The notes under the pieces were generated by a model. It searched no databases. It saw only the letters and a program-made list of their open reading frames with translations, and was not told where the DNA came from. Of a stretch of DNA of 64,000 bases, positions 2,922 to 14,978 are shown piece after piece. Source of the stretch: Bacteroidales bacterium (GTDB taxonomy: Bacteria; Bacteroidota; Bacteroidia; Bacteroidales; P3); assembly GCA_024400565.1 (NCBI GenBank), contig JAKSMQ010000005.1:651-64650 (forward strand). The letters run 5' to 3'. The first letter of the stretch is position 1; the number at the start of each line of letters is the position of its first letter. The translations under genes were made by a program, and so were the position numbers.

Positions 2922-3129
2922 CCCCCAGCCATAGGGTAGGGGACTATCCTCCATGCAACCGGTCTGCTCTGCCAGGGGTAGAAAAGATAAGTTTTTGATA
3001 TTTCTTCCTCCAGAGAGGAATGGTTTAGGCATCACGAAGCACATGTTTACGCCTGATGTGGTTAGTATTAATTAGAAAAGGCGACAGCAATAAAAGCATT
3101 TGTGTGATTTGCAATTGCATGCTCAACTT

Positions 3130-3411
3130 CTAATGCTCTATTGTCTGACCGAATTCTGACGTTGAATTCGTGTCATACAATTTCATCATATTGTAGAGTG
3201 AACGTTTGCTGTAGCCTCTGCGTTTAGGATTATGTCGCTTCAGGTAATCAGCCAATTCACTCACCACATAATCACCCCATTGAGTGTTCTTCAATCGGTC
3301 GGAGATGTAACTACCCACCTCCCCATACGTTTGTAATGTCTTAGCATTCACCTTGGCAATAGCAGTATTGGTGAGTGAGTTAACGTAAGCGAACTCTTGT
3401 TCGTGTTGCAC
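3130..3411 (-). pseudogene. DUF1016/YhcG-family N-terminal fragment (truncated PD-(D/E)xK nuclease-family gene remnant)
   Basis: The 93-aa ORF starts at GTG. The sequence (YGEVGSYISDRL...VSELADYLKRHNPKRRGYSKRSLYNMMKLYD) resembles only the N-terminal helical domain of YhcG-like proteins. The C-terminal nuclease domain is absent. Confidence 0.45.
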
Positions 3412-3500
3412 TTGTAACTAGGATTTAGGCTTTCTTTAGCCGAAAAAAAATATTTTTCCTCGTGCTATTCTTTCTCAAAAGTTGCATTTCTTATTGGAAC

Positions 3501-3962
3501 TTAGGGTAAATTTAGTGAAATATTTTCAAACGACATAGTCCAGTCTTGGCCATCAGTTTCATTAATGTCAGGCAGAAGGTAATCTTCTTTTTCGGGCAGC
3601 TCGGCCAATATAGCCTCGTCCGAAATCTGTAATTTCGCACGAATTCTCTTAAAAAAACTAATCTCGGAATATTCGATATTGTTATCCGCCTCTATTGTAT
3701 CAATGGCCAACTTGACAATTTGTAATTCTGCATGTTCAGAAAGTTGAGCAGCTGAAAGTTCTTTCAGGAATGAAGTTAGAAATTCATTTCCATCTCGTTG
3801 AATGTCTTCCACATATTCGCTAAGTTTGGACGAGATATCCAAGCCTTCAAATACAGCCTGATTTGTTGCAACACTCTTTACTAAGGCCAATTCCTCGTTG
3901 GCGATTTCGCCGTCGCATGCCATGCAGCAAAAGACGGTTTTCAAGAACAGTTCATTATTCAT
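3501..3962 (-). CDS. TerB-like (tellurite-resistance TerB fold) protein, last gene of the Hsp70 operon
   Basis: 153 aa. FCCMACDGEIANEELALVKSV plus a second half LAIDTIEADNNIEYSEISFFKRI fit the two-repeat TerB pattern (A-x-A/C-D-G-x-I-x-x-x-E). The ATG lies 5 nt after the stop of the kinase-AAA gene. Confidence 0.65.
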   Translation of the reverse strand: MNNELFLKTVFCCMACDGEIANEELALVKSVATNQAVFEGLDISSKLSEYVEDIQRDGNEFLTSFLKELSAAQLSEHAELQIVKLAIDTIEADNNIEYSEISFFKRIRAKLQISDEAILAELPEKEDYLLPDINETDGQDWTMSFENISLNLP

Positions 3963-3967
3963 AGTTG

Positions 3968-5746
3968 TTATCTTTTAAATCCAATTGGTTTGCGTTGAGT
4001 AATAGTTTGGTCGGTTTGTTCAATTTCGTTCCGAATAGACTCAAATTTCTTTAACTCTTCGAAAGGTATTGATGGCTTGTTTTTTGATATTGTCTGCAGT
4101 AGCAAGTCCATAGTTATCTTCTCGTCTTTTTCAAAAGCAATTCTAGCGGCCTCATCAACGATGAAATTCATATCGGCAGAGACATAGTTGTCCGTTTTCT
4201 CGGCCAACAAATCATAATCTATACCGAAATCTGTATATCGGTCCCTTAGTGCCAATTCAAAAAGAGCTTTACGTGCATTCTTGTCAGGAGGTCCGATATA
4301 GAACTTCTTTTCCAATCTACCGGAACCCAACATGGCCGGATCTATCATATTAGGATAATTGGTTGCCCCAATAACGAAAACCCCTTTCTCTCCAGTCCTG
4401 TCCATTTGTGCCAACATTTCATTCACAGCACTTTTTGACATTTCGTGGGAATCACTTGATCTATTGGGCAATAATTCATTTATTTCATCTATAAAGATTA
4501 TCGTTGGGGCATTCTCCTCGGCTTCTTTGAACATATTGGCTATGTTCTCTTGCGAAGCATTCACCCATTTACTTTTCAAATCAGCAGGGGTTTTCTGCAT
4601 GAAATTGAAGCCTACCTCCTCTGCCATCTTTTTAGCAAAGAAGGTCTTGCCACAACGTGGAGGACCATAGAGCAACATACCATTGGGCAAAGAAAGCCCG
4701 TAACGCTTCGACTTCTCTGGGTCCTTAATGATTCTGATAATATCCCTTGTTATCAAGTCTTTCAACTCCTGCATACCAGCCACATCAGCAAACCCATTTC
4801 CTTGAGGAATATTCACATTGCTACCTTTAGAAGATTCCTCCTTGTCAATTGGATGAGATGTTGCAATAGGTGACACTTTTATTTCACCCTTTAATGCCTT
4901 GGCAAATTCATCGGCAGACTGGAATCTGTCATCTGGATTATAGGCGAGTGCTTTGGCCATGATGTTTATCAGCTGTTCATCCAGTCCGGACTTTTCTCTG
5001 TCCAAGATTCGCAATGGTCGCTTTCGCTCATTATTGATAGTCTCTACCATAGCCAGCCTATCTCCTTTAAGTTTCGACAGATTGGTATAATATGGAGGTA
5101 GACCAAACAGTAGTTGATACAGCATAGCTCCAACAGAAAAGATGTCACTTTGTGGCGAAAACAAACCATTGAATGCTTCTGGTGCTTGGCAAAATAGGTC
5201 GAGACCATCTTTCTGAAACGAACGATGGTCTTGACTCATAAACCGGGCATAGCCAAAGTCAATGATGATTGGCTTGGCCATTCCTTTTGACATATCAAGC
5301 ATCACATTCTGCGTTGTCAGCTCATTATGAATAATTGGATTCGGCAAAGAATGAAGATACTTCAAACCGTCCAACACACCTAGCACAATTTGTTTGGCAT
5401 CAAACACAGTGCAGTCATTATCTCGTGTTGTTTTCTGCGCTGCGGTTTCGCCACTAATGAAGTCATACACCACATACAACATTCTTTTCCCATCTACCAA
5501 CATTTCACCACTATCTCGATAGTGAAGAACATTGGGATGATTCAGTTGCTCCGACACCTTCAACTCCAAACAATCACCATTCTCATCAAATTGTGTAGGA
5601 TGCAGTTTGTTGTAGGCAATCAACTTCAAGAAACAATTCTTGCCGCAAGGATCTTTAACGCGGTAAGTCTCAGCGTAAGTTCCTTGCTTTATTGGGAAGG
5701 CAACTGTGTATGAAGCAATCTCTTGATTCTTTTGTAGACTATACAT
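3968..5746 (-). CDS. Ser/Thr protein-kinase-like domain fused to a classic-clade AAA+ ATPase
   Basis: The N-terminal half has Hanks-kinase landmarks: FLKLIAY (Lys), IIHNELTTQNVML (catalytic loop, HNE in place of HRD), IIDFGYA (DFG), QAPEAF (APE) and SDIFSVGAMLYQLLFGLPPY. The C-terminal half has Walker A LLYGPPRCGKT, Walker B IIFIDEINEL, sensor-1 VIGATNYP and the second region of homology DPAMLGSGRLEKKFYIGPPD. Confidence 0.8.
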   Translation of the reverse strand: MYSLQKNQEIASYTVAFPIKQGTYAETYRVKDPCGKNCFLKLIAYNKLHPTQFDENGDCLELKVSEQLNHPNVLHYRDSGEMLVDGKRMLYVVYDFISGETAAQKTTRDNDCTVFDAKQIVLGVLDGLKYLHSLPNPIIHNELTTQNVMLDMSKGMAKPIIIDFGYARFMSQDHRSFQKDGLDLFCQAPEAFNGLFSPQSDIFSVGAMLYQLLFGLPPYYTNLSKLKGDRLAMVETINNERKRPLRILDREKSGLDEQLINIMAKALAYNPDDRFQSADEFAKALKGEIKVSPIATSHPIDKEESSKGSNVNIPQGNGFADVAGMQELKDLITRDIIRIIKDPEKSKRYGLSLPNGMLLYGPPRCGKTFFAKKMAEEVGFNFMQKTPADLKSKWVNASQENIANMFKEAEENAPTIIFIDEINELLPNRSSDSHEMSKSAVNEMLAQMDRTGEKGVFVIGATNYPNMIDPAMLGSGRLEKKFYIGPPDKNARKALFELALRDRYTDFGIDYDLLAEKTDNYVSADMNFIVDEAARIAFEKDEKITMDLLLQTISKNKPSIPFEELKKFESIRNEIEQTDQTITQRKPIGFKR

Positions 5747-5760
5747 AGCAGAGTGACAAA

Positions 5761-8304
5761 TTACAGGTAGTGAAACTTAGATTTTTGGATTTTCGTCTTT
5801 TCGTCTTCAGGTACATCTAGCAGGTCGATGACTCGTGCACACACCTGGCGGATAGATTCGGGGTCGGCATTATCATTGATCATCTGCTGAGCCTGATTGA
5901 GTAACTGTCTAGCCGTGGCAGCATCAGTCCATTTGTATCGACCAAAGTTATTATTATAGTGTTCTACAAAGGCAACTAGCTGATAAATAATTGTGACTTG
6001 GAAAAAGAGATGACCCATATCTCGCAGAACCTCTCTGCCCAATTTGGGATCTTTCTTTCGCACAGCCTCGTCAACTTGGCGGTGCATTTCGCGAACTTCA
6101 TTGTCGTATTCATTCCCCAAATCATTATTTGCAGTTTCCAGTCGCTCATATTCACTTCTGAGTTCGGCTTCTATCGATTCCCATTCGTGCATTTTCTCCA
6201 CCTCTTCCATTTTGCGGAAAGCTGTGCGAAGGTCTTTCATCAAATGGTCTTTGCCATCATCCTGTGATTTCTCACCTTCAAAACGACCAGAAACATCAGA
6301 TAGAATCTTTTCCACCTCCAATAGCTCGCTCTGCGGGATAGCCTTGCTGGATTTCAACGAACGCAATCTTCTATTAGCGTCCTGCATTCGCTGGGATAGA
6401 AGTTCTTCAGATACAGCCTGTTTGACGGAAATGGTCACTTCTTTCTCAACGGTTTCGCCACATGACACAAAGAACACCTCTAAATTGTAGTTCTGAGAGC
6501 TGTCCACCTTTAATGTCACATCAATATCGCTACCTTCTGGAATCAACATTGGCACATCATCGCCAGTAATCACAACATCATAGACATGATTGTTGTGGAT
6601 TGCGCTTGAGCCCTCAGCGCTATATTCGCCTTGATAGATGGGAATAACCATTCTATCCTGCTCCATACCAGGGCGTAAATTCTTGGGTACTTTCAATCCA
6701 TTACGGACACCTGTAGCTGGCAATTGCTGGTTTTTTTCCAAACCCTTCATCTGGACAAACACATCTCTATCTAAATCTGTATCACGAACCTCAATTCCAA
6801 TATGGTAAGGCAAGGTGGCATTGCCTACTTTCGTGCCTTGAATAATCGTTATTTCATTAGGAAAACACTGGATGGAATTACCTGTTCCGTCATATCCCTT
6901 TATAGCAAAAGCATTGGCTCTGCCTTCGTTAAGTCGACATTCTATAACATCGCCAATCTCATTCACCTCTACTTTGCCGCTGGACCAGCCCTTGTCGCTC
7001 CTTACCAGTTCTACAAATAGTTGCGACGGCATTGTGCCGACACACTCATTCGGCAATAGTTTTACTGTGACAAACTCCAAGGATTCCACACTATTGGCTT
7101 CATACTGGATATCAAGTGCCATAACCGAAGATATAGTATCAGTAGCACTAATAACTGGGCCTTCGGTATCAATACTCTGTGTAGCTGCAAATAATGCGGC
7201 GCCCTTGGCCACTGCCGTCATGGGGTCGATGCTGGTGTCCACGTTTGGCGTCACCTGGTCTTTCAGCATTTGGCGCAAAACAGGCGAGAAAGTCGGACCA
7301 CCAACTAGTATCAAACTATCCAACTTGCTGCCCGACAAATTGTTTCGCCTCAACAATTCAAGACACTTGTCAATTGCCTTCTGGAAGATAGGGGCTACAA
7401 CCTTGGCAATCTCCTCTTGCGAAATCACCATATCCAACTCGATAGCCTCACCCTCATCATCCTCGCCAAACTCGTCAATCTGAGACATGATATCGCATTG
7501 GGGTTTGAAGGAAAGCTGATTCTTGGCCTGCTCGGCATAATACTTCATGGCATCGCGCAAAATCTCACGTTTACGACTATCAGCCATTATATCATCTATG
7601 GTATAGTTGTCTTTCAAATAAGGAATGATTATCTGATCGACTATGGAATAGTCAAGGTTCTTGCCACCCAGATAGTTGTCGCCTTCAGTGTCAATCACCT
7701 TCATGATGCCATCTTCCACTTTCAATAGGGCTGCGTCGAAAGTACCGCCACCAAAGTCGAACACCATCCAATATCCGTCTTTCTTGTCTGTGCTCAAGCC
7801 GTATGCCATCGAAGCCGCAATGGGTTCTTGCAACAATTCGCAGTACTCAATACCCGCCATAGTAGCAGCACGTTTGGTGGCAGCAATCTGAGTGGCATCA
7901 AACATAGCAGGAATAGTAATAACAGCTGTATTGATGGTGTCGTCTGTAACAAACGACTTCAAAGTTTTAAGGACTTCTGAAGACAGGTCTTCTGACGAAT
8001 AGCTTCTGTCCATATTAGAACTATGGTATTGGGTGGCCAAACCCATAGTACGCTTAAACTCAATGAAAACATTTGTGGCCTCATTTGTCCATTTTTTTGT
8101 ACTTCGACTTCTGTCTGTTCTTAAGTCATTATATGCACCATCTCCGACTTTGACAATTTTCCTTTTTGAAAAGGAAACACAAGAGGGAAGAGTATCTTTT
8201 AAGGTGTCAGTTTTCTTAATAATGGGTTCTCCATTTTCCATCTTGCAGATGGCGGAATTGGTTGTACCCAAATCAATTCCGTATTTCATCTTTATTTGAG
8301 CCAT
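5761..8304 (-). CDS. divergent Hsp70/DnaK-family ATPase (847 aa) with extra inserted domain and long helical tail
   Basis: NBD motifs are GIDLGTTNS, VITIPAMF, LLQEPIAASMAYG, DFGGGTFD, DNYLGGKNLD, LILVGGPTFSPVLRQ and DPMTAVAKGAALFA. An SBD-beta-like segment follows (LPYHIGIEV...IPIYQGE...VVITGDDVP...IDVTLKVD), then about 220 aa of charged helical sequence. An alternative ATG lies at 8289. Confidence 0.85.
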   Translation of the reverse strand: MAQIKMKYGIDLGTTNSAICKMENGEPIIKKTDTLKDTLPSCVSFSKRKIVKVGDGAYNDLRTDRSRSTKKWTNEATNVFIEFKRTMGLATQYHSSNMDRSYSSEDLSSEVLKTLKSFVTDDTINTAVITIPAMFDATQIAATKRAATMAGIEYCELLQEPIAASMAYGLSTDKKDGYWMVFDFGGGTFDAALLKVEDGIMKVIDTEGDNYLGGKNLDYSIVDQIIIPYLKDNYTIDDIMADSRKREILRDAMKYYAEQAKNQLSFKPQCDIMSQIDEFGEDDEGEAIELDMVISQEEIAKVVAPIFQKAIDKCLELLRRNNLSGSKLDSLILVGGPTFSPVLRQMLKDQVTPNVDTSIDPMTAVAKGAALFAATQSIDTEGPVISATDTISSVMALDIQYEANSVESLEFVTVKLLPNECVGTMPSQLFVELVRSDKGWSSGKVEVNEIGDVIECRLNEGRANAFAIKGYDGTGNSIQCFPNEITIIQGTKVGNATLPYHIGIEVRDTDLDRDVFVQMKGLEKNQQLPATGVRNGLKVPKNLRPGMEQDRMVIPIYQGEYSAEGSSAIHNNHVYDVVITGDDVPMLIPEGSDIDVTLKVDSSQNYNLEVFFVSCGETVEKEVTISVKQAVSEELLSQRMQDANRRLRSLKSSKAIPQSELLEVEKILSDVSGRFEGEKSQDDGKDHLMKDLRTAFRKMEEVEKMHEWESIEAELRSEYERLETANNDLGNEYDNEVREMHRQVDEAVRKKDPKLGREVLRDMGHLFFQVTIIYQLVAFVEHYNNNFGRYKWTDAATARQLLNQAQQMINDNADPESIRQVCARVIDLLDVPEDEKTKIQKSKFHYL

Positions 8305-8316
8305 ATTGAGAAGTGT

Positions 8317-9174
8317 TTAGTTTTGACTTACTGTGATTTGCGCAGATTGGATCATTACTCCGTTATAATTAATCTGCGGTTTTGTGATACCTGTGATGAT
8401 TTGCTGACCCGGTTCCAAGTTCTCGTCTTCAACAAAATTAGCAACAACTTTCATTCCTTCATGATAAGGCTTTCCAAGCATATCAACAATCTCATATCCA
8501 TTGGCCAGCAGGTTACTTTTCATCTGATCAATTGATTTGGACAGTTGTTTATAACCTTTTACAGTTTTATCCATACGGTATAACGTGACTTCCATAAAAG
8601 CAATTCTGTCAGCAAGAGTCTTGATAAGGTCTGTCATGTCTTCAGACGACACATTACTTGAAGGAGCCGATGCTGCGGTGGCTATCTTCTGCAACTCTGA
8701 TAGTTCTGTATTCAGCTTTGTTACAACTTGTTCATTCAACTTATCGGCTTTCTCTTTGAGTTCGGTAATCTCATTTGTTCCATAGAGGATTCGTTTGCGC
8801 AAAACCACAAAGACTACAACAACCATAACCAATAGTGCCGCAATCAGAATAGCACCCAATATACTTTTGGATTTAATATTCTGTTCGTTGCTTGATACGG
8901 CAGTTTCAGTTGTTTTGATTTTCACACCTAAAGAATCAGCAATGACCTTTACATTGCTTGCATTCTTTTGAATGGCTTCATCTTGTTTGAGGTTAGCACT
9001 CAAAAGGTTGGCATTAGCGGAAGCAAGCGAATCATACTGTGTCTTCAAAGATTGCATTTGGAGCTCCAACGAGACCACCCTCTTATTCAACATAGATAAA
9101 CTATCTTGCTGAGCATAACTGATGAAAGTTATGGCAAGAAATAAGAATGGTAAAAATAATTTAATAAGTTTCAT
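8317..9174 (-). CDS. bitopic membrane protein with coiled coils and C-terminal GrpE-like domain
   Basis: The ATG at 9174 gives a signal-like N-terminus MKLIKLFLPFLFLAITFISYAQQ; the track start at 9222 is TTG. One internal TM is ILGAILIAALLVMVVVVFVVLRKR. The C-terminus NGYEIVDMLGKPYHEGMKVVANFVEDENLEPGQQIITGITKPQINYNGVMIQSAQITV follows the GrpE beta-domain pattern (compare E. coli [55 protein letters not shown]). Confidence 0.6.
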   Translation of the reverse strand: MKLIKLFLPFLFLAITFISYAQQDSLSMLNKRVVSLELQMQSLKTQYDSLASANANLLSANLKQDEAIQKNASNVKVIADSLGVKIKTTETAVSSNEQNIKSKSILGAILIAALLVMVVVVFVVLRKRILYGTNEITELKEKADKLNEQVVTKLNTELSELQKIATAASAPSSNVSSEDMTDLIKTLADRIAFMEVTLYRMDKTVKGYKQLSKSIDQMKSNLLANGYEIVDMLGKPYHEGMKVVANFVEDENLEPGQQIITGITKPQINYNGVMIQSAQITVSQN

Positions 9175-9184
9175 ATCGATTATT

Positions 9185-10669
9185 TTAATTACATGTTGCA
9201 ATACAAAATCCAATAATTCCAAATATTACATATATTATTATTTGAACAATACTGCCGCCATATTCGTCCCAAAAAACTCTGAAGCGACTTGTTGGAATAC
9301 CAATTTGACTACACAATTTTTTCAATGTTCTACGATTAGTATTGTATCTTTCTTTGAGGGCGGCATCCATGTCAAATTTGTCCATTAATAATGTGGCATC
9401 CCAGGCGTCTTTGAATGAGCGTCTTATAATAAATATCCTCATACTTCCCAAAGATGAATATTCCTTTTGTACCGCATTAATCTCCTCAATTACATTGTGT
9501 AATGCATTGTTCACCACCTTGGAAGACAAATTCAGATAGTAACTGTTAGTTACACCCAATTTCGCCTTCATTGCTTGCAGTTTCGGCTTGGTATTGTTTA
9601 ACAATGTAACTGAGTGCTCAATCTTGTCGGGTTTTTTACAAAAATCCTTTAACTCTTTGAATATGGCAATAGCTTCCTGCTCGACACCAGCAGGGGGCAG
9701 ATTTTTTTCTTTTTTGGCTAATGTTTCAACAGCCTGTTCGCAGCGGTCTTTGGTGATTTTTCCGACTGCTACTTTTGTGGCATACTCGGCCAGTTTCTTT
9801 GCGTTTAGTACATACTCTCTACTTTCATCACTATTATTGAAATAGTTAATGCTACATTGAAGAATCTGATTTGCCAACTTATCTGCCAATCGTTGATAAT
9901 CAACATCATTTGCACCGACCAACGCAATTAATCGAAGACGAATCCTATGAGTAGAATTACTTAACTCCTTGCCAGCCTCCTCCCATAATTTTGATTCATC
10001 ACCTTTGGTTGCTCTTGCCTTAGATATTGCATTCTCTATGATTTCGAACCGCTTCTGTATGGAATATTTTCGAATATTTTCTACCACCCAAAAATCAATA
10101 GAATTTCCGACATTTTGAAAAACATCGAATGCGTCTATCTCTTCAAAGACTTTGGAGAAGAATGTCTCTGCAAGTTCTTCTTTGGAGATTTGAATTGTAT
10201 CACCCGCAACAGCATTGACAAATCCAGTACGCATATCATCATTCTGAATCATCTTGCCCATGCAAGTTATTGCCGCAATATTCTCACCCGCAATAAACGC
10301 CAATACGCTTCGATTGACTAGTGCAGCGAATGTGTCTCGTTTGGAGAAAAGCTCTAAGGCTTTCTCCTCGTCACCCTTAACAAGATACTCCCATGCCATT
10401 GCTCCAACTGAATCTTCTGGTTTGATGAACCAAAACAAGGCATGAGTCAACTTGCCCTGAGGCAAGTTGATATTTGCTGTTGCTTGTCCAACCGACGCTG
10501 TATCTCGTTCTAACGAAGGCTGCCCACCAACACAATCAAGTGGGAAAGAAACGGTTTTGCTTGCTGCCAAATATGCCTTCAGCTTAGATTGATTGGCCGC
10601 AATTTCTTTGGCACTAGCGTTAGTGGGTACGCCTAATATTCTAAAAGGATTATTGCTAATAATATTCAT
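9185..10669 (-). CDS. tail-anchored J-domain-like protein (no HPD motif), first gene of the Hsp70 operon
   Basis: The N-terminus NPFRILGVPTNASAKEIAANQSKLKAYL matches J-domain helices I-II (YYxILGVxxxASxxEIKxAYRKLA), but the HPD position reads AAS. A long helical middle follows, then a C-terminal hydrophobic anchor IVQIIIYVIFGIIGFCIATCN. Confidence 0.55.
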   Translation of the reverse strand: MNIISNNPFRILGVPTNASAKEIAANQSKLKAYLAASKTVSFPLDCVGGQPSLERDTASVGQATANINLPQGKLTHALFWFIKPEDSVGAMAWEYLVKGDEEKALELFSKRDTFAALVNRSVLAFIAGENIAAITCMGKMIQNDDMRTGFVNAVAGDTIQISKEELAETFFSKVFEEIDAFDVFQNVGNSIDFWVVENIRKYSIQKRFEIIENAISKARATKGDESKLWEEAGKELSNSTHRIRLRLIALVGANDVDYQRLADKLANQILQCSINYFNNSDESREYVLNAKKLAEYATKVAVGKITKDRCEQAVETLAKKEKNLPPAGVEQEAIAIFKELKDFCKKPDKIEHSVTLLNNTKPKLQAMKAKLGVTNSYYLNLSSKVVNNALHNVIEEINAVQKEYSSLGSMRIFIIRRSFKDAWDATLLMDKFDMDAALKERYNTNRRTLKKLCSQIGIPTSRFRVFWDEYGGSIVQIIIYVIFGIIGFCIATCN

Positions 10670-10725
10670 TGTTTAAGTCTTCTTGCTAAAGGACATAAAA
10701 AAAGAACCGCGAACTTTTTGTTCAG

Positions 10726-10831
10726 CCCGAGGTCCTAGGATAACCTACACTACAAACAAGAAAGCCCACGGTATTACCGCGAGCGATTCTCCTTTCTTGT
10801 GTAGTGTACTTGAAATTTCCTAGGTTTCGGG
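10726..10831. repeat. long imperfect inverted repeat (about 106-nt nested hairpin) in the leader of the Hsp70 operon
   Basis: The outer arms CCCGA..TCCTAGGA (10726-10740) pair with TCCTAGG..TCGGG (10818-10831). The inner arms TACACTAC-AA-ACAAGAAAG (10746-10764) pair with CTTTCTTGT-GTAGTGTA (10792-10808). The 27-nt loop contains a small CGG/CCG stem. Confidence 0.6.
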
Positions 10832-10941
10832 TACTGCAAAGAAAAGCGAAAACGCTTTTTTATATGTTATATTTAATTATTTTCTTTCTATTTTATTGTT
10901 TTATAATGTTTTATTGTTGATTAGTATTCTTTTTCAGTTTG

Positions 10942-10949
10942 CAAATATA
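10942..10949 (-). promoter_or_regulatory. candidate Bacteroidetes -7 box (TATATTTG) for the Hsp70 operon
   Basis: The reverse complement of CAAATATA is TATATTTG, matching TAnnTTTG. It lies about 270 nt upstream of the ATG at 10669. A possible -33 TTTG at 10978-10975 sits at non-ideal spacing. Confidence 0.4.
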
Positions 10950-11082
10950 CAAAGATTTTGGAAATTAGTGGTAACAAAATGCTTGAGGACAGGTATTTTT
11001 ATGATACAATAGGGTATCAAGAAGAAATTGGTTTTTATACATCAAATATGTGATGGCTCAACCACAATCATTCTTATGTGCT

Positions 11083-11739
11083 TTATATTACAATCCCGTT
11101 CTCCTTGAGTATTTGCTCGAGATGCTCTATGCGGTCGCGCAAGGCTGCATTCTCGTTTCGAAGCATTTCTATCTGTTGTTTCTGGTTGCTACGATAGCCC
11201 AGTCTGGCCGCTGTCATCCTTTCGCGTATGCCTCCCTCTTCTACAAATTTCCGTTCTAGCTGTTCCTGGTAGGAGGTCATCAGCTTGTCGGTGATATGGC
11301 AGAGGGTAAGCGCCACATTGGCCATCTCCACATCGTCCCACACTTCGAAGTATTGTTCATAGTCCTCCACCTTGTTGTGGACGCGGCAATATTCGAGCAT
11401 AGAACGATAGCGAGGATGCCCCTCGGTCCAAACGGGCAGCTGCCGAGCACCAAGGTAGTCCTGGTAGTCTTCGCGCAGTTCCTTGAGACTTCCGCGGGCA
11501 CAATTGAGCAGTTTTACCTCCATCTCCATACTGGTCACACCATCGGCAGCCCCCTCTACAATATTTTGCTTGCCCGATCGAGCCGCTTGCACCATCTGGT
11601 CAACAGTTCGGTCGCCCTTGCGAAGGAATCGCTCGGTGAACCGATAGGTGAGCATATACAGCGTGTTGGCCTTCTGGTAGAAGTACAGTTCTTCCCAGTG
11701 GGTCTGCTTGCGCAAGAAGGTGGGGTGAGGCGTTGGCAT
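11083..11739 (-). CDS. four-helix-bundle protein (23S rRNA intervening-sequence protein / Avd-like family) with C-terminal coiled-coil extension
   Basis: LYFYQKANTLYMLTYRFTERF...QMVQAARSGKQNIVEGAA is typical of the four-helix-bundle family common in Bacteroidota. A leucine-zipper-like tail QIEMLRNENAALRDRIEHLEQILKE follows. ATG start. Confidence 0.7.
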   Translation of the reverse strand: MPTPHPTFLRKQTHWEELYFYQKANTLYMLTYRFTERFLRKGDRTVDQMVQAARSGKQNIVEGAADGVTSMEMEVKLLNCARGSLKELREDYQDYLGARQLPVWTEGHPRYRSMLEYCRVHNKVEDYEQYFEVWDDVEMANVALTLCHITDKLMTSYQEQLERKFVEEGGIRERMTAARLGYRSNQKQQIEMLRNENAALRDRIEHLEQILKENGIVI

Positions 11740-11768
11740 GATTTTTTTTATTTTTTGGTTTTTTTTGA

Positions 11769-11925
11769 GGGGGGGGATTTTCTAGGGGGGGGGGGCTAGG
11801 ATTTTCTAGGGATTCCTAGGATTTCTAGGGTTTCTAGGGATTCCTAGGGTGGGGGACTATGGGGATGGAATTTCTTGGGGGCTTGGGATTTTGGGATTCT
11901 TGTATTCTTGTGTTCTACCTTGGTT
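11769..11925. repeat. degenerate ~10-bp tandem repeat (ATTYCTAGGG) with G8 and G11 homopolymer tracts
   Basis: CTAGG occurs at 11782, 11796, 11806, 11816, 11825, 11834 and 11844 (spacings 14, 10, 10, 9, 9, 10). G8 is at 11769-11776 and G11 at 11785-11795. The array decays into TTCTTGGGG / TTTTGGGA / TTCTTGT variants up to about 11925. T8/T6/T8 tracts at 11742-11766 precede it. Confidence 0.8.
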
Positions 11926-12027
11926 ATTTTCTTTTTTGTTGTCTCTTGTTGGCATGTGTTTGGTCTATTGATAGCTATAACGTCAAAAGAACCATTTTAT
12001 TATTCTACGTTGGATATATATGAAAAG

Positions 12028-12049
12028 CCCCAGGAGGTATTCCCTGGGG
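12028..12049 (-). terminator. hairpin terminator downstream of the 506-aa gene
   Basis: CCCCAGG (12028-12034) pairs with CCTGGGG (12043-12049). On the minus strand the stem is followed by CTTTTCA. It lies about 40 nt after the stop at 12090. Confidence 0.45.
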
Positions 12050-12089
12050 TTTCAATCTTTCTGGGGCTTCATTTTTCCTCTATGCGAGG

Positions 12090-13610
12090 TTATGCAATGC
12101 ATTTAACCTTGCTGAAGGTGGTTACGATTTGCTCAATCTCCACGGGAATGCTTGTACCCTTGTGGCCCTGGGTGATGGCATCGTAGTATTTTTTCTGGTC
12201 GGCTTTCTTGCATTGAAAGATCTCATAGTGAGAGAGCTCGTCCCTTATCCCGGACTGACGGCAGGTCAGTATCTGAACAGCCTCGGATGAGAGATAGCCC
12301 GCCAGCACCAGAAGAGGACGGATGTTGACCTGAATGCCTTGCACCGAGACGCAGATATGTCGGCTGCCCGGATGGAAAACGCTATCCCATAATTTCGAGC
12401 TTTGTCGGGTTGTAATCTGCGTGCCGGCAAGGAGACGGGAAACGACTTCATTGACCTTCCAGATGGCCAGACTGTCATCGCCACACAGATGGATCATGGC
12501 CTCTTTGAAAACAGCAGTGATTTGCTGCTTGACAGCTGTGTGCTGGCTTTCGCTCAGGGCGAAGAGAGGCTGGTATTCGAAACCTTGAAAAGTGTGGTGG
12601 GAGTTGTAATACTCCAGGAGACGCTCTTTGATGATGTAATTGAAAAATGGTTGAATATCATACTTGATACCCGTTTCATCATCATTTGAAGCGAAACAGC
12701 TCCTGACTAACGATACCGCCAATTCGTCACCGGGAAGTCCATCCTCGTCGATGGTTCGGAAATATTCCTTTCCCGAAGGTGTGGCGCTAAAGGCGTGGTA
12801 TATCTGCGCGTGGACGCGTTGCAGCATATCGGTTGCGAACTTGAACTCCTCCATTGAGACACGCAGCTCGCGTTTGATACCCTCGACACTCGACTCATAA
12901 TAGTCCAAATAAGTTTTGTTGAGTGCACGTTTGCATGCGCCCGAATCATTGATGGTTTCCTTTAACTTTCCCAACGATCGCTGCAGCTTCTGCTTGTAGT
13001 CGGTTAATTTTTCGACCAGGAAGGGCAGGAGCGTGCATTCCTCCTTAAAGATGTAGTGGAATGCTTCGTCGAGCAGATCTTTAATCCTGACAGAAATATC
13101 AAGTTTGGAGAATTTCTCTTTCATGTTCTGAAAGATGCCCCGCACAATATTGTAATAGACATCGAAAGTATCGGAATTGAGTCGGTGGGCCTTCTTGATG
13201 CTACTGATATCAGAGAGCCCGTGTTCATCGCAGAATTTATCTATATCGTTCAGGAAGGAGGGTATCTGATTCAACAGATTTGCACCTTCCTGATTCAATT
13301 TTTCAAGATGTCCATTGACAAGCGTCAGAGCCTCATCCGCTGCCTGATCTGTCTCCCGTGTAAGAGATAAAAGCATCTCGCCAATAGGGTCGGGCTTAAA
13401 CTCGTTTAACTTGACGCTGAATGACTCTCTTGAAATCTCACAGCAGGAATGCGAGATTCCAGGATCGATCTCGAAAAGATTGAGCCAGATTGCCGGGCTG
13501 AAGCCGGAAAGGCTGCCTTTGTAAAATTTTTCTTCAGACTCTTCCTGAATCGGAAGGTTCATTACCTCGTAAATGTGCTCTATCACACTATATTCCAAAT
13601 GATTGATCAT
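12090..13610 (-). CDS. hypothetical protein (506 aa, predicted all-helical, no recognised family)
   Basis: Long uninterrupted ORF. The track start at 13646 is TTG and lies inside the predicted promoter. The ATG at 13610 (MINHLEYSVIEHIYEV) sits about 20 nt downstream of the predicted TSS. Confidence 0.6.
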   Translation of the reverse strand: MINHLEYSVIEHIYEVMNLPIQEESEEKFYKGSLSGFSPAIWLNLFEIDPGISHSCCEISRESFSVKLNEFKPDPIGEMLLSLTRETDQAADEALTLVNGHLEKLNQEGANLLNQIPSFLNDIDKFCDEHGLSDISSIKKAHRLNSDTFDVYYNIVRGIFQNMKEKFSKLDISVRIKDLLDEAFHYIFKEECTLLPFLVEKLTDYKQKLQRSLGKLKETINDSGACKRALNKTYLDYYESSVEGIKRELRVSMEEFKFATDMLQRVHAQIYHAFSATPSGKEYFRTIDEDGLPGDELAVSLVRSCFASNDDETGIKYDIQPFFNYIIKERLLEYYNSHHTFQGFEYQPLFALSESQHTAVKQQITAVFKEAMIHLCGDDSLAIWKVNEVVSRLLAGTQITTRQSSKLWDSVFHPGSRHICVSVQGIQVNIRPLLVLAGYLSSEAVQILTCRQSGIRDELSHYEIFQCKKADQKKYYDAITQGHKGTSIPVEIEQIVTTFSKVKCIA

Positions 13611-13635
13611 AATATAAATTGTTAAAAATTTGGTG

Positions 13636-13643
13636 CAAAGATA
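13636..13643 (-). promoter_or_regulatory. candidate -7 box (TATCTTTG) for the 506-aa gene
   Basis: The reverse complement of CAAAGATA is TATCTTTG, matching TAnnTTTG. It lies 26-33 nt upstream of the ATG at 13610. Confidence 0.5.
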
Positions 13644-13833
13644 CAAGTAAATTATGATAATGCAAGCATATTTATTGAAATTGTCAATAACTATTAGTAG
13701 AATTGTAAGAAATGAGTGTGCTTGAACGGATTTATATATCGGACAGTCAGTATGTTAGATTGCATATTGAAATGTTGTTCGGACCACGATGGCTTAATTT
13801 CTATGCCGACGTGGCGATGTGGGACGAAATTAT

Positions 13834-13873
13834 CTGGAAAACAGCTGGAAAACGAGTACAAAATCTGGAAAAC
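13834..13873 (+). repeat. three direct copies of CTGGAAAAC
   Basis: Copies lie at 13834-13842, 13845-13853 and 13865-13873 (spacing 11 and 20 nt). They sit about 75-110 nt upstream of a plus-strand -7 box. Confidence 0.7.
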
Positions 13874-13946
13874 AGGAGTTATATCGCTGATATACAATGG
13901 TGGAAAAAGAACAGAAGGAACAGAATCTTTCCATAAAAAAAGGTTG

Positions 13947-13954
13947 TATATTTG
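13947..13954 (+). promoter_or_regulatory. candidate -7 box (TATATTTG), plus strand
   Basis: Exact TAnnTTTG match in the 675-bp ORF-poor spacer. It would give a leader of about 360 nt, containing the 11-bp repeat array, ahead of the ATG at 14322. Confidence 0.4.
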
Positions 13955-14107
13955 CAAAATGAAAAAACGATGAGATAAGTTTTTTCGGTCGCAGTTCCCC
14001 GATGGAATAGGGTTGAGCGGACAGATGGTTAAACAAAAAAAATATCGAATAAAAAACAAAGATCCAACAAAAGAATGAGAGGTAGAAATGGAGAAGAAAA
14101 AGGGGTT

Positions 14108-14262
14108 GACTACAAAAGTGGCTGTTTTGACTACAAAAGTACTACAAAAACACTACAAAAACACTACAGAATCTCTACAAAAACACTATTTCGACTCTGA
14201 ATCGACTCTACAATATCTCTACAAAATCACTATATCGTCTCTACAATGTCTCTACAAAACCA
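14108..14262 (+). repeat. array of CTACAA(A/T) motifs in strict 11-bp register (phased A-tracts)
   Basis: CTACA starts at 14110, 14131, 14142, 14153, 14164, 14175, 14208, 14219, 14241 and 14252. From 14131 to 14252 every spacing is a multiple of 11. TCGACTCT is also duplicated 11 nt apart (14191, 14202). Confidence 0.85.
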
Positions 14263-14321
14263 GACACAAGCAATTCCGCCCTCGAGGAGGGCACAAGTTT
14301 AACAATTAAATTTTTATCAAC

Positions 14322-14978
14322 ATGGCAAAATTATCAGCAAAATTCGGACCAATACACGGAAATGACGGTAACACCGCTTACCGCACAATCAACGGAACCA
14401 CGTTCCAAAACTACATTGACACCGCAGCGCCCAAGAAGGAGCGTACCCCGCGTCAGAAGACCTATGGGGCATTGCTGAAGGTGATGAACAGGTATACGTA
14501 CATTCATTACCCGGATCTGACGGCATTCTTTCCCAAAGGCAATAAACGATCCTCCCGTCATGCATTCCTTGCACATAACAGGGAGAGCCTTGCCGCAGCC
14601 TTGTATTCTCTGGCAGAGCGTAGTGCAAACGGAGAGAAAATCACAGACCAGCAGATTGAGGATGCAGTCAGCACCTATGCACAGGCCAATCCCCGCAGCA
14701 TTGTGGTGGGACTGAGGAAAGGTTATCTGCCTATATACCTTGAGGGTGAATGGCCTTCAAAGTTCAGATTCCTGCTGTACGACCAGGCAGTCACCCCTGC
14801 CGAGTTTCAGACGGCAGACGGCACGTTTGTGCAGGAAGAGGGAGATGCTGACGCCAATGGCGGAACCACAGGCAATGGTGGAGATGCCAACTCGGGTCAG
14901 GGAGGCACTTCCCAGTCTCAGACTGGTGGCACCTCTAATCCTGGTGGCGGTTCCTCTGGCGGCTACGACGGCGACTAG
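14322..14978 (+). CDS. hypothetical protein with Gly/Ser/Thr-rich low-complexity C-terminal tail
   Basis: 218-aa ORF with an ATG start and a terminator hairpin downstream. The C-terminus is GDADANGGTTGNGGDANSGQGGTSQSQTGGTSNPGGGSSGGYDGD. No family confidently recognised. Confidence 0.55.
   Translation: MAKLSAKFGPIHGNDGNTAYRTINGTTFQNYIDTAAPKKERTPRQKTYGALLKVMNRYTYIHYPDLTAFFPKGNKRSSRHAFLAHNRESLAAALYSLAERSANGEKITDQQIEDAVSTYAQANPRSIVVGLRKGYLPIYLEGEWPSKFRFLLYDQAVTPAEFQTADGTFVQEEGDADANGGTTGNGGDANSGQGGTSQSQTGGTSNPGGGSSGGYDGD

Follow-up and report, generated by a model that had tools for sequence, protein, structure and literature searches.

What does an Hsp70 paralogue do in an operon together with two membrane-anchored partners, a protein kinase fused to an AAA+ ATPase and a TerB protein? 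This question is raised by five genes located at positions 3501-10669 of a 64,000-nt stretch of DNA from a Bacteroidales bacterium (contig JAKSMQ010000005.1 of assembly GCA_024400565.1), which is called the window here. An annotation made from the sequence alone (the initial annotation) had drawn attention to them. The operon is probably a mobile, membrane-associated Hsp70 system for defence or stress sensing. Apparently, it is undescribed and belongs among the Hsp70-based systems that have been recruited to accessory conflict or stress roles.

Organization and distribution of the operon

The operon comprises five co-directional open reading frames (ORFs) on the minus strand. P1 (9185-10669) encodes a protein of 494 amino acids (aa), P2 (8317-9174) a bitopic membrane protein of 285 aa, P3 (5761-8304) the Hsp70 paralogue of 847 aa, P4 (3968-5746) the kinase-AAA+ fusion of 592 aa and P5 (3501-3962) a 153 aa protein of the TerB superfamily. 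All protein domains described below are likewise encoded on the minus strand. The spacers between the genes measure 10, 12, 14 and 5 nt. P2 starts with the ATG at 9174 that is common to all homologues; an upstream TTG is not used. An identical public contig of 7.8 kb, for which genes had been called independently, has the same five genes, and the window Hsp70 is also recorded in assembly GCA_024500545.1. According to the composition profile, the GC content of the operon block is 0.36-0.45 compared to 0.53-0.60 in both flanks. ORFs, spacers and GC contrast all match the initial annotation, which had described five tightly spaced minus-strand genes in an AT-rich block.

The distribution of the system was determined with an alignment of the Hsp70 C-terminal region as probe and one genome per species. 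The probe matched 221 of 185,579 species genomes. The best 80 of these 221 are Bacteroidota (Bacteroidales, Flavobacteriales, Cytophagales and Saprospirales), except two metagenome-assembled genomes labelled otherwise. Synteny was counted only in loci that were long enough for the respective test. P2 adjoins the Hsp70 gene in 61 of 63 testable loci, and P1 is located upstream of it in 62 of 63. After the Hsp70 gene, the kinase-AAA+ gene is found in 59 and the TerB gene in 53 of 62 testable loci. Across Bacteroidota, the order P1-P2-Hsp70-[variable slot]-kinase-AAA+-TerB recurs. Among 2.9 million IMG/VR contigs, only four carry the system, and these have this order as well. The linkage seen in the window is therefore found elsewhere too, with all five genes in 42 of the 54 fully testable loci and their order kept. 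Reduced forms consist of P1-P2-Hsp70 alone or are devoid of kinase-AAA+, and a Chryseobacterium/Flavobacterium clade has no TerB. This means, P1-P2-Hsp70 is the tightest core.

The surroundings are not kept. Among the proteins encoded by the immediate neighbours, 204 of 240 (85%) have no counterpart at any other locus. Four relaxases and three integrases were found among them. No authentic dnaK, dnaJ or grpE gene was detected in the window or in the retrieved related loci. A gene order kept over several Bacteroidota orders in changing surroundings agrees with the proposal of a self-contained unit, and from these sequence comparisons a horizontally mobile accessory unit, apart from housekeeping dnaK, is the best reading.

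Could the genes nevertheless form an ordinary housekeeping chaperone locus without any conflict or accessory role? The Hsp70 ATPase is intact, and purifying selection across Bacteroidota is clear, as would be expected from such a locus. Nevertheless, this explanation is hardly credible: The probe finds only 221 species genomes, the GC content of the block is atypical, the neighbourhoods are not conserved, and one copy resides on a plasmid (see below). In addition, the Hsp70 scores 238 bits against the 822-bit cut-offs of the DnaK and HscA equivalogs and is therefore a distinct paralogue. The patchy distribution, the plasmid copy and the variable neighbours also speak against a universally conserved core locus, a possibility that the initial annotation had itself raised.

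The Hsp70 paralogue

P3 carries an Hsp70 nucleotide-binding domain within approximately residues 1-385 (7150-8304; delimited with Pfam HSP70 and DnaK structures). Residues 9-404 match the Pfam family HSP70 (PF00012) with E 1.2e-65, and the family profile matches DnaK structures with E 2.6e-59. D11, K84, E160, D183 and T188 as well as the GGG motif are kept in 74-77 of 77 family sequences. Both the Pfam match and the conservation of the catalytic residues corroborate the predicted Hsp70 with all ATPase motifs.

The family-specific C-terminal region comprises residues ~395-847 (5764-7122) and is first beta-rich and then helical. Its family amounts to 657 clusters at 50% identity. Full-length members have ~825-865 aa, and the region is always located at ~397-840. 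The initial annotation had regarded this region as similar to a substrate-binding domain (SBD). In support, the DnaK profile alignment extends into the first SBD-beta strands, up to about residue 441, and a second, weakly matching stretch covers the part where SBD-beta ends and the lid begins. A comparison with the E. coli DnaK SBD using hhalign yielded E 6e-4 (probability 29%). On the other side, the C-terminal 450 residues have no Pfam match, and the C-terminal profile alone did not find any Hsp70 in the PDB. Thus, with moderate support from the partial DnaK alignment and hhalign, an SBD-like nature of the region is plausible but unproven.

A membrane-tethered Hsp70, as initially proposed, could not be confirmed: P3 itself has no membrane anchor, and anchors are present only in its two partners P1 and P2. 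Directly upstream of the kinase-AAA+ gene, the variable slot of some Flavobacteriia and related loci encodes another Hsp70 paralogue (681-871 aa) that belongs to the same family (L058:11891-13936, L071:12049-14664 and L073:11622-13880).

P2, a membrane protein with a probably GrpE-like domain

P2 is composed of a signal peptide (residues 1-21), a variable periplasmic coiled coil, a transmembrane helix (residues 105-125; 8800-8862; identified from sequence and alignment), a cytoplasmic coiled coil and a conserved cytoplasmic C-terminal domain of ~115 residues (170-285; 8320-8667). Based on Pfam and hhalign comparisons, this domain is probably GrpE-like, which is not proven. GrpE (PF01025) is its top Pfam family, found with 8 of 28 orthologues at a best E of 0.0013, which is below the cut-off. 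Using hhalign, the domain aligned with the last helix and the beta-domain of E. coli GrpE (residues 116-195, E 2.5e-4; GrpE sequence checked against 1DKG). With three solved GrpEs aligned, the value improved to E 7.5e-5 (probability 62%), and 69 columns were in register to the C-terminus.

Other searches contributed little. Single-sequence searches in Pfam, NCBIfam and PDB with P1 and P2 yielded nothing useful. The P2 C-terminal profile did not find GrpE in the PDB, and with the full-length profile, coiled-coil matches dominated. In the AlphaFold model, one long helix over residues 3-168, which takes in the signal peptide and the transmembrane segment, is confident. The predicted local distance difference test (pLDDT) score of the C-terminal domain is below 50. 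As this key domain is of low confidence, Foldseek with the P2 model was uninformative on a GrpE fold. Of the initial proposal of a GrpE-like C-terminus encoded by the second gene, the similarity found by Pfam and hhalign stands as moderate support, and the model does not add to it.

P1, a tail-anchored helical protein

P1 is a tail-anchored, all-alpha cytoplasmic protein of an uncharacterised family. Neither Pfam nor NCBIfam has a family for it, and among the 120 homologues listed no Pfam domain was found, apart from an added thioredoxin-type domain in one of them. The AlphaFold2 model (mean pLDDT 92.9) is entirely helical and ends in a transmembrane helix. Foldseek searches with this model against PDB and predicted viral structures returned only weak generic TPR/Sel1-like matches (TM ~0.13).

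The initial annotation had assigned a J-like N-terminus to P1. In alignments, the N-terminal motif NNPFRILGV..NASAKEI.. (residues 6-35; 10565-10654) resembles helices I-II of J domains. The HPD motif is absent in all 24 aligned orthologues, whose consensus at this place is KAYxKVGK. Comparisons with J domains by hhalign gave E 0.011 over 22 columns and E 0.0032 over 64 columns with probabilities of 4-10%, and the P1 profile reached the J-domain entry 2cug of the PDB at E 0.69. Pfam and NCBIfam did not yield a DnaJ match, and a J domain was not found by Foldseek with the full-length model either. With these values the assigned J-likeness is weak, and P1 as J protein was rejected on the defining HPD test.

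At its C-terminus, P1 is anchored by a transmembrane segment (residues 474-493; 9191-9250) that is apparent both as hydrophobic tail and as helix in the model. It is preceded by a conserved Gly-Cys, and G472 is invariant in the alignment of 24 orthologues. In many P1 orthologues, a CFI-box-CTERM domain (NCBIfam NF041770, E 1e-22 to 5e-25) replaces the Gly-Cys-transmembrane tail.

The kinase-AAA+ fusion and TerB

P4 combines a Hanks-type Ser/Thr kinase (residues ~8-290; 4877-5725; Pfam Pkinase E 7.9e-29) with an AAA+ ATPase of the classical clade (residues ~320-560; 4067-4789; Pfam AAA E 8.3e-36, AAA_lid_3). These matches confirm the fusion reported in the initial annotation. The AAA+ part is closest to CDC48 and FtsH models (E 1e-51 and 1e-46, respectively). 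Residue conservation was assessed in 70 sequences, the window copy and 69 orthologues. In the kinase, K41, E61, H140, N147, D163, E190, D201 and R274 are invariant. They include the kinase Lys, the alpha-C Glu, His and Asn of the catalytic loop, the DFG Asp, the APE Glu and the subdomain XI Arg. The catalytic loop reads H-N-[D/E] instead of HRD, with Asp as base in 33 and Glu in 37 sequences.

In the AAA+ domain, K367/T368 of Walker A, D420/E421 of Walker B, N463 of sensor 1 and R477 are conserved. The initial annotation had described the arginine-finger region as intact, which does not apply to the window copy: It has Gly474 at the first arginine of the second region of homology (SRH) and Arg364 inside Walker A (GPPRCGKT). 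By contrast, GPPGCGKT and R474 are present in 68 of 69 aligned orthologues. Consequently, two SRH arginines are found in the P4 family overall and not in the window P4. The pair G364R and R474G also occurs in locus L053 (L053:11887-13662), whose P4 is only 51% identical to that of the window. The 75%-identical P4 neighbours of L053 itself are canonical at 364 and 474. Therefore, the pair arose at least twice, which makes a compensated and still functional site more plausible than decay. The double exchange looks like a compensatory relocation of an arginine within the AAA+ active site. As the active-site residues are conserved, Hsp70, kinase and AAA+ domain are probably all enzymatically active.

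P5 was predicted to have a TerB fold, and this is confirmed at the level of the family. Pfam TerB (PF05099) is matched by 27 of 28 P5 orthologues with a best E of 2.3e-8. The window copy itself stays with E 0.0026 and 18.5 bits under the 24.4-bit cut-off. The paired DG...E motifs, MACDGxI..E and ADxxIxYSE, are conserved. Two structures were matched weakly by profile: 2ou3, which is TerB-like (COG3793), and 2h5n, a hypothetical protein.

A variable slot within the operon

The slot between the Hsp70 and kinase-AAA+ genes contains 0-3 small genes. In most loci, it comprises 0.5-3.3 kb with 1-3 genes. The window copy represents the minimal form without slot gene. Thus, the initially described composition of five genes holds for the window, and the variable slot of most relatives had been missed. 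The slot proteins belong to more than 20 unrelated families (e.g. L002:12573-13193, L047:11348-11893, L059:11350-12183 and L006:11391-11909). Among them are an SH3 (SH3_3) protein, a CpXC zinc ribbon, KilA-N, many membrane or tail-anchored proteins and, occasionally, the second Hsp70 paralogue mentioned above. The KilA-N protein, present in four loci, is of the same family as the PADLOC candidate PDC-S22 (E 3.5e-132). Weak matches of slot proteins to TOTE and HEPN were not significant. The slot genes may provide the system with effectors or sensors; alternatively, the slot may be no more than an insertion hotspot.

At least 9 of 81 slot proteins end with Gly-Cys followed by a hydrophobic stretch, and 19 of 81 have a C-terminal transmembrane segment. 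The Gly-Cys-transmembrane tail is common to P1 and at least nine slot proteins (e.g. L002:12573-13193, L023:7736-8356 and L028:12530-13054), which suggests a shared targeting or assembly signal.

Eukaryotic Hsp70 and AAA+ extractors like Msp1 and Cdc48 handle tail-anchored proteins. By analogy, the operon might serve the biogenesis or quality control of such proteins, with P1 and the slot proteins as clients that are inserted or extracted by Hsp70 and the AAA+ protein. The tails shared by P1 and slot proteins would be accounted for. Still, this explanation is improbable: The tails are missing in most slot proteins, many P1 orthologues have the CFI-box-CTERM domain instead, and in the window, where the operon has its minimal form of five genes, no slot protein is available as client. 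The kinase and TerB would be left unexplained.

Neighbourhoods and possible role

Neighbouring genes at various loci include the defence-type genes pAgo, GajB, AbiEii, PDC-S01/S02/S19/S27 and mad2. On plasmid pHALHY02 of Haliscomenobacter hydrossis, the operon has the same order and is flanked by SIR2 and WD40 genes at one end and by the BREX genes brxL and pglZ at the other. Its products are annotated there as CFI-box-CTERM protein, "septum formation initiator", Hsp70 family protein, AAA family ATPase and TerB family protein. Directly downstream of the window operon (3130-3411), a 93-aa ORF was found that contains only a DUF1016 N-terminal domain (PADLOC candidate PDC-S02, E 1.6e-19). Located at the border of the low-GC island, this ORF is apparently what remains of a truncated nuclease gene that is a defence candidate. 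The BREX/SIR2 flanks, the defence-type neighbours, the PDC-S02 remnant, PDC-S22 in the slot and the high variability of the slot fit a function in defence. Judged from this gene context, defence against phages or mobile elements is the most likely role, with not quite an even chance of being the right one. The initial annotation had also arrived at a candidate for defence or stress sensing. The context fits it (BREX, SIR2, pAgo, GajB, AbiEii, PDC), and two of its parts, the membrane-tethered Hsp70 and the J protein, were not borne out.

How might such a system work? According to sequence and models, P1 and P2 are both inserted in the inner membrane and expose their conserved parts to the cytoplasm. 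P2 would be a membrane-spanning nucleotide-exchange factor for Hsp70. The long helices of GrpE act as a thermosensor. Because of this analogy, it is proposed that the periplasmic and transmembrane coiled-coil stalk of P2 might couple the state of the envelope, e.g. phage entry or membrane damage, to the ADP/ATP cycle of Hsp70. P1 would be a membrane-anchored adaptor or scaffold that presents clients by a route other than the canonical HPD-dependent one. At the inner membrane, Hsp70 could then capture a client that is foreign or misfolded and hand the signal or the client to the kinase-AAA+ protein. As output, the latter would phosphorylate and/or unfold targets and stop infection or damage. 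A relay from the tethered co-chaperones over Hsp70 to kinase-AAA+ had already been proposed in the initial annotation and is speculative. TerB might be a membrane-proximal accessory that binds a ligand or metal. It is possible, albeit doubtful, that the operon represents a new class of Hsp70-centred immune or stress sensors with a GrpE-like transmembrane gate, P1 in place of a J protein, a kinase-AAA+ effector and a swappable slot.

Several points weigh against a defence system of this kind. The system is essentially absent from sequenced phages (none in 50,697 phage records). The association with defence genes rests on a modest fraction of the neighbours (~8% of 150, strong PADLOC matches) and on one plasmid. 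The matches of P4 to PD-T4-6, MAD6 and IetA reflect generic domain similarity. The GrpE-like call for P2 comes from sequence comparisons, to which the low-confidence model adds nothing. P1 is not demonstrably a J protein, which leaves the stimulation of the Hsp70 ATPase without an assigned partner. Finally, the window copy has neither a slot gene nor a canonical AAA+ site and could be impaired.

The same components might serve the cell under stress, which is the main rival explanation. In an accessory island for proteostasis or envelope stress, Hsp70, the tethered exchange factor and the Cdc48/FtsH-like unfoldase would extract or refold inner-membrane proteins damaged by heat, oxidative, tellurite or envelope stress, and the kinase would regulate this machine. 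A precedent is the horizontally transferred heat-resistance locus (tLST/LHR) of Enterobacteria. Hsp70, a GrpE-like partner and a classical AAA+ unfoldase are proteostasis parts, both Hsp70 partners are membrane-anchored, and TerB belongs to tellurite/stress operons. In addition, the unit is mobile and patchy like stress islands, and three Clp proteases were found among the neighbours. Nevertheless, a proteostasis island is rather unlikely. Three features would not be accounted for: the hypervariable slot, whose products include KilA-N/PDC-S22, SH3, zinc-ribbon and weakly HEPN-like proteins; the position of the operon between BREX and SIR2 genes; and the fusion of a Hanks-type kinase to the unfoldase. 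Moreover, the conserved core is devoid of small heat-shock proteins and proteases.

The only recurrent neighbour of the operon is a gene for a ~680-aa protein with tetratricopeptide repeats (TPR) and a retropepsin-like aspartyl protease, which was found in six loci. In five of them, it is co-directional upstream and adjoins P1 or a P1 paralogue (L020:3129-5171, L023:719-2773, L028:4250-6280, L032:4184-6214 and L039:829-2865). In the sixth, it is located downstream of TerB (L006:15468-17519). Possibly, this gene represents a sixth component that is optional. In the TerB-less Chryseobacterium/Algoriella clade, other genes follow kinase-AAA+ (L054:14301-17186, L074:14153-14650, L074:14888-17710 and L080:14114-14743). 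By eye only, they appear to be of the large helicase-type ATPase, GIY-YIG, type I restriction R-subunit and serine recombinase types.

Comparison with known systems

The operon resembles the DnaK-DnaJ-GrpE triad only in outline, namely in three respects: It encodes an Hsp70 ATPase with conserved catalytic residues, a neighbouring gene whose product has a GrpE-like C-terminus on a long helical stalk, and another neighbour with an N-terminus faintly similar to J-domain helices I-II. In contrast to the triad, the Hsp70 has 847 aa with a C-terminal region that is not recognised by standard profiles, the GrpE-like protein crosses the inner membrane and extends into the periplasm with a coiled coil, and the third partner is an HPD-less, tail-anchored protein of 470 helical residues. 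Furthermore, this set is joined in an operon to kinase-AAA+ and TerB.

E. coli HscC is a specialised Hsp70 with the membrane-anchored J proteins DjlB and DjlC, and E. coli DjlA combines a TerB-like domain, a transmembrane segment and a J domain. As in the operon, a specialised Hsp70 has membrane-anchored co-factors, and TerB-type and Hsp70-cofactor functions meet at the inner membrane. By this likeness, HscC-DjlB/DjlC and DjlA may be the nearest cellular analogues. The HscC/Djl systems differ by canonical HPD J domains and are not known to have a linked dedicated exchange factor, a kinase-AAA+ partner or the form of a mobile five-gene unit.

Shango consists of a TerB protein, a helicase and an ATPase. 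In IetAS, the AAA+ ATPase IetA is paired with the subtilisin-like protease IetS. The operon shares TerB with Shango and Ter operons, the Hanks-type kinase with PD-T4-6, Stk2 and MAD6 and the classical AAA+ domain with IetAS. At the domain level, PADLOC accordingly reported matches of P4 to mad6 (E 8e-33), PD-T4-6 (E 8e-32) and IetA (E 1.9e-28). Unlike in Shango, none of the five genes encodes a helicase domain, and unlike in Ter stress operons, TerC, TerD and TerY are missing. In contrast to IetAS, the operon core has no protease, and its AAA+ domain is fused to a kinase. The operon as BREX, Shango, IetAS, PD-T4-6 or MADS was rejected, as matches were found only at the domain level and the partner genes are missing.

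Hsp70 paralogues have been recruited, sometimes with their own GrpE or J partners, to other predicted conflict operons as well. GAP1-N2 GTPase-centric conflict systems include HSP70, GrpE and DnaJ-fused proteins (Kaur et al., 2020; PMC7159879). They are reported mainly from Actinobacteria and Firmicutes and have a GAP1-N2 GTPase core with FNIII-repeat partners (PMC7159879). CnuD are Hsp70-like proteins of the CoCoNuT systems, which are reported mainly from Pseudomonadota and Terrabacteria (PMC10542128). Compared to both, the operon has no GTPase, tubulin, McrBC or HEPN core and resides in Bacteroidota; Pfam and NCBIfam searches did not detect a GTPase or FNIII domain in any of the five proteins. 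A kinase-AAA+ fusion, TerB and a membrane-spanning GrpE-like protein are not described for these systems.

No PADLOC or NCBIfam system model covers the operon, and no PADLOC model matches Hsp70, P1 or P2. Full-text literature searches did not retrieve a description of the gene set; a 2012 paper on Ter systems (PMC4104200), which possibly mentions TerB and Hsp70 together, was outside their reach. As far as the models and the searchable literature go, the initial statement that the five-gene combination is not a named system was right.

The low-GC island around the operon

The operon lies in a low-GC island of ~11 kb (about 2930-14300), which was delimited by composition profile and flank annotation. 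Its flanks are housekeeping genes for a radical SAM enzyme, QueG, RlmL, NadC and CinA. Rfam did not reveal any RNA element in or around the operon, and there is no tRNA within the window.

A candidate operon promoter on the minus strand, TTTG ... TAnnTTTG, was read from the sequence at 10930-10959, ~260 nt upstream of the P1 start. The motif corresponds to the Bacteroidetes promoter consensus. The same 30 nt form one arm of the inverted repeat I1 (87%), whose other arm is located at 13937-13966. Both arms contain TAnnTTTG, and they are probably divergent copies of one promoter. Two island genes lie between them. The first (11083-11739) encodes a four-helix-bundle protein (23S rRNA IVP family) with a TIGR04258 suffix domain, the second (12090-13646) a 518-aa protein without family. 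Short repeats containing CTAGG/CCTAGG are found at 11803-11848, upstream of the four-helix-bundle gene, as well as at 10826 and 10735, within the long leader in front of P1. Possibly, these repeats serve as operators.

At the far edge of the island (14120-14262), a tandem array of ~13 units of 11 nt, CTACAAAAACA-like, is located upstream of an unannotated 218-aa ORF (14322-14978). This array could represent iterons or an array of protein-binding sites. A 26-nt direct repeat brackets the operon (2907-2932 and 10762-10787). It was taken as chance, because its copies are only 81% identical and one of them overlaps the end of a gene, the other a terminator-like hairpin.

Implications

For the well-studied Hsp70s, neither a transmembrane GrpE-type exchange factor nor a dedicated HPD-less partner nor a link to a kinase-AAA+ fusion has been described. 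The independent G364R and R474G swaps provide a natural experiment on the relocation of an arginine finger. If the operon is indeed a sensor for defence or stress, it would be an example of how a signalling switch at the membrane can be made from a chaperone cycle. TerB would gain a concrete set of partners, and a Bacteroidota-specific system would be added to the defence repertoire of gut and marine bacteria.

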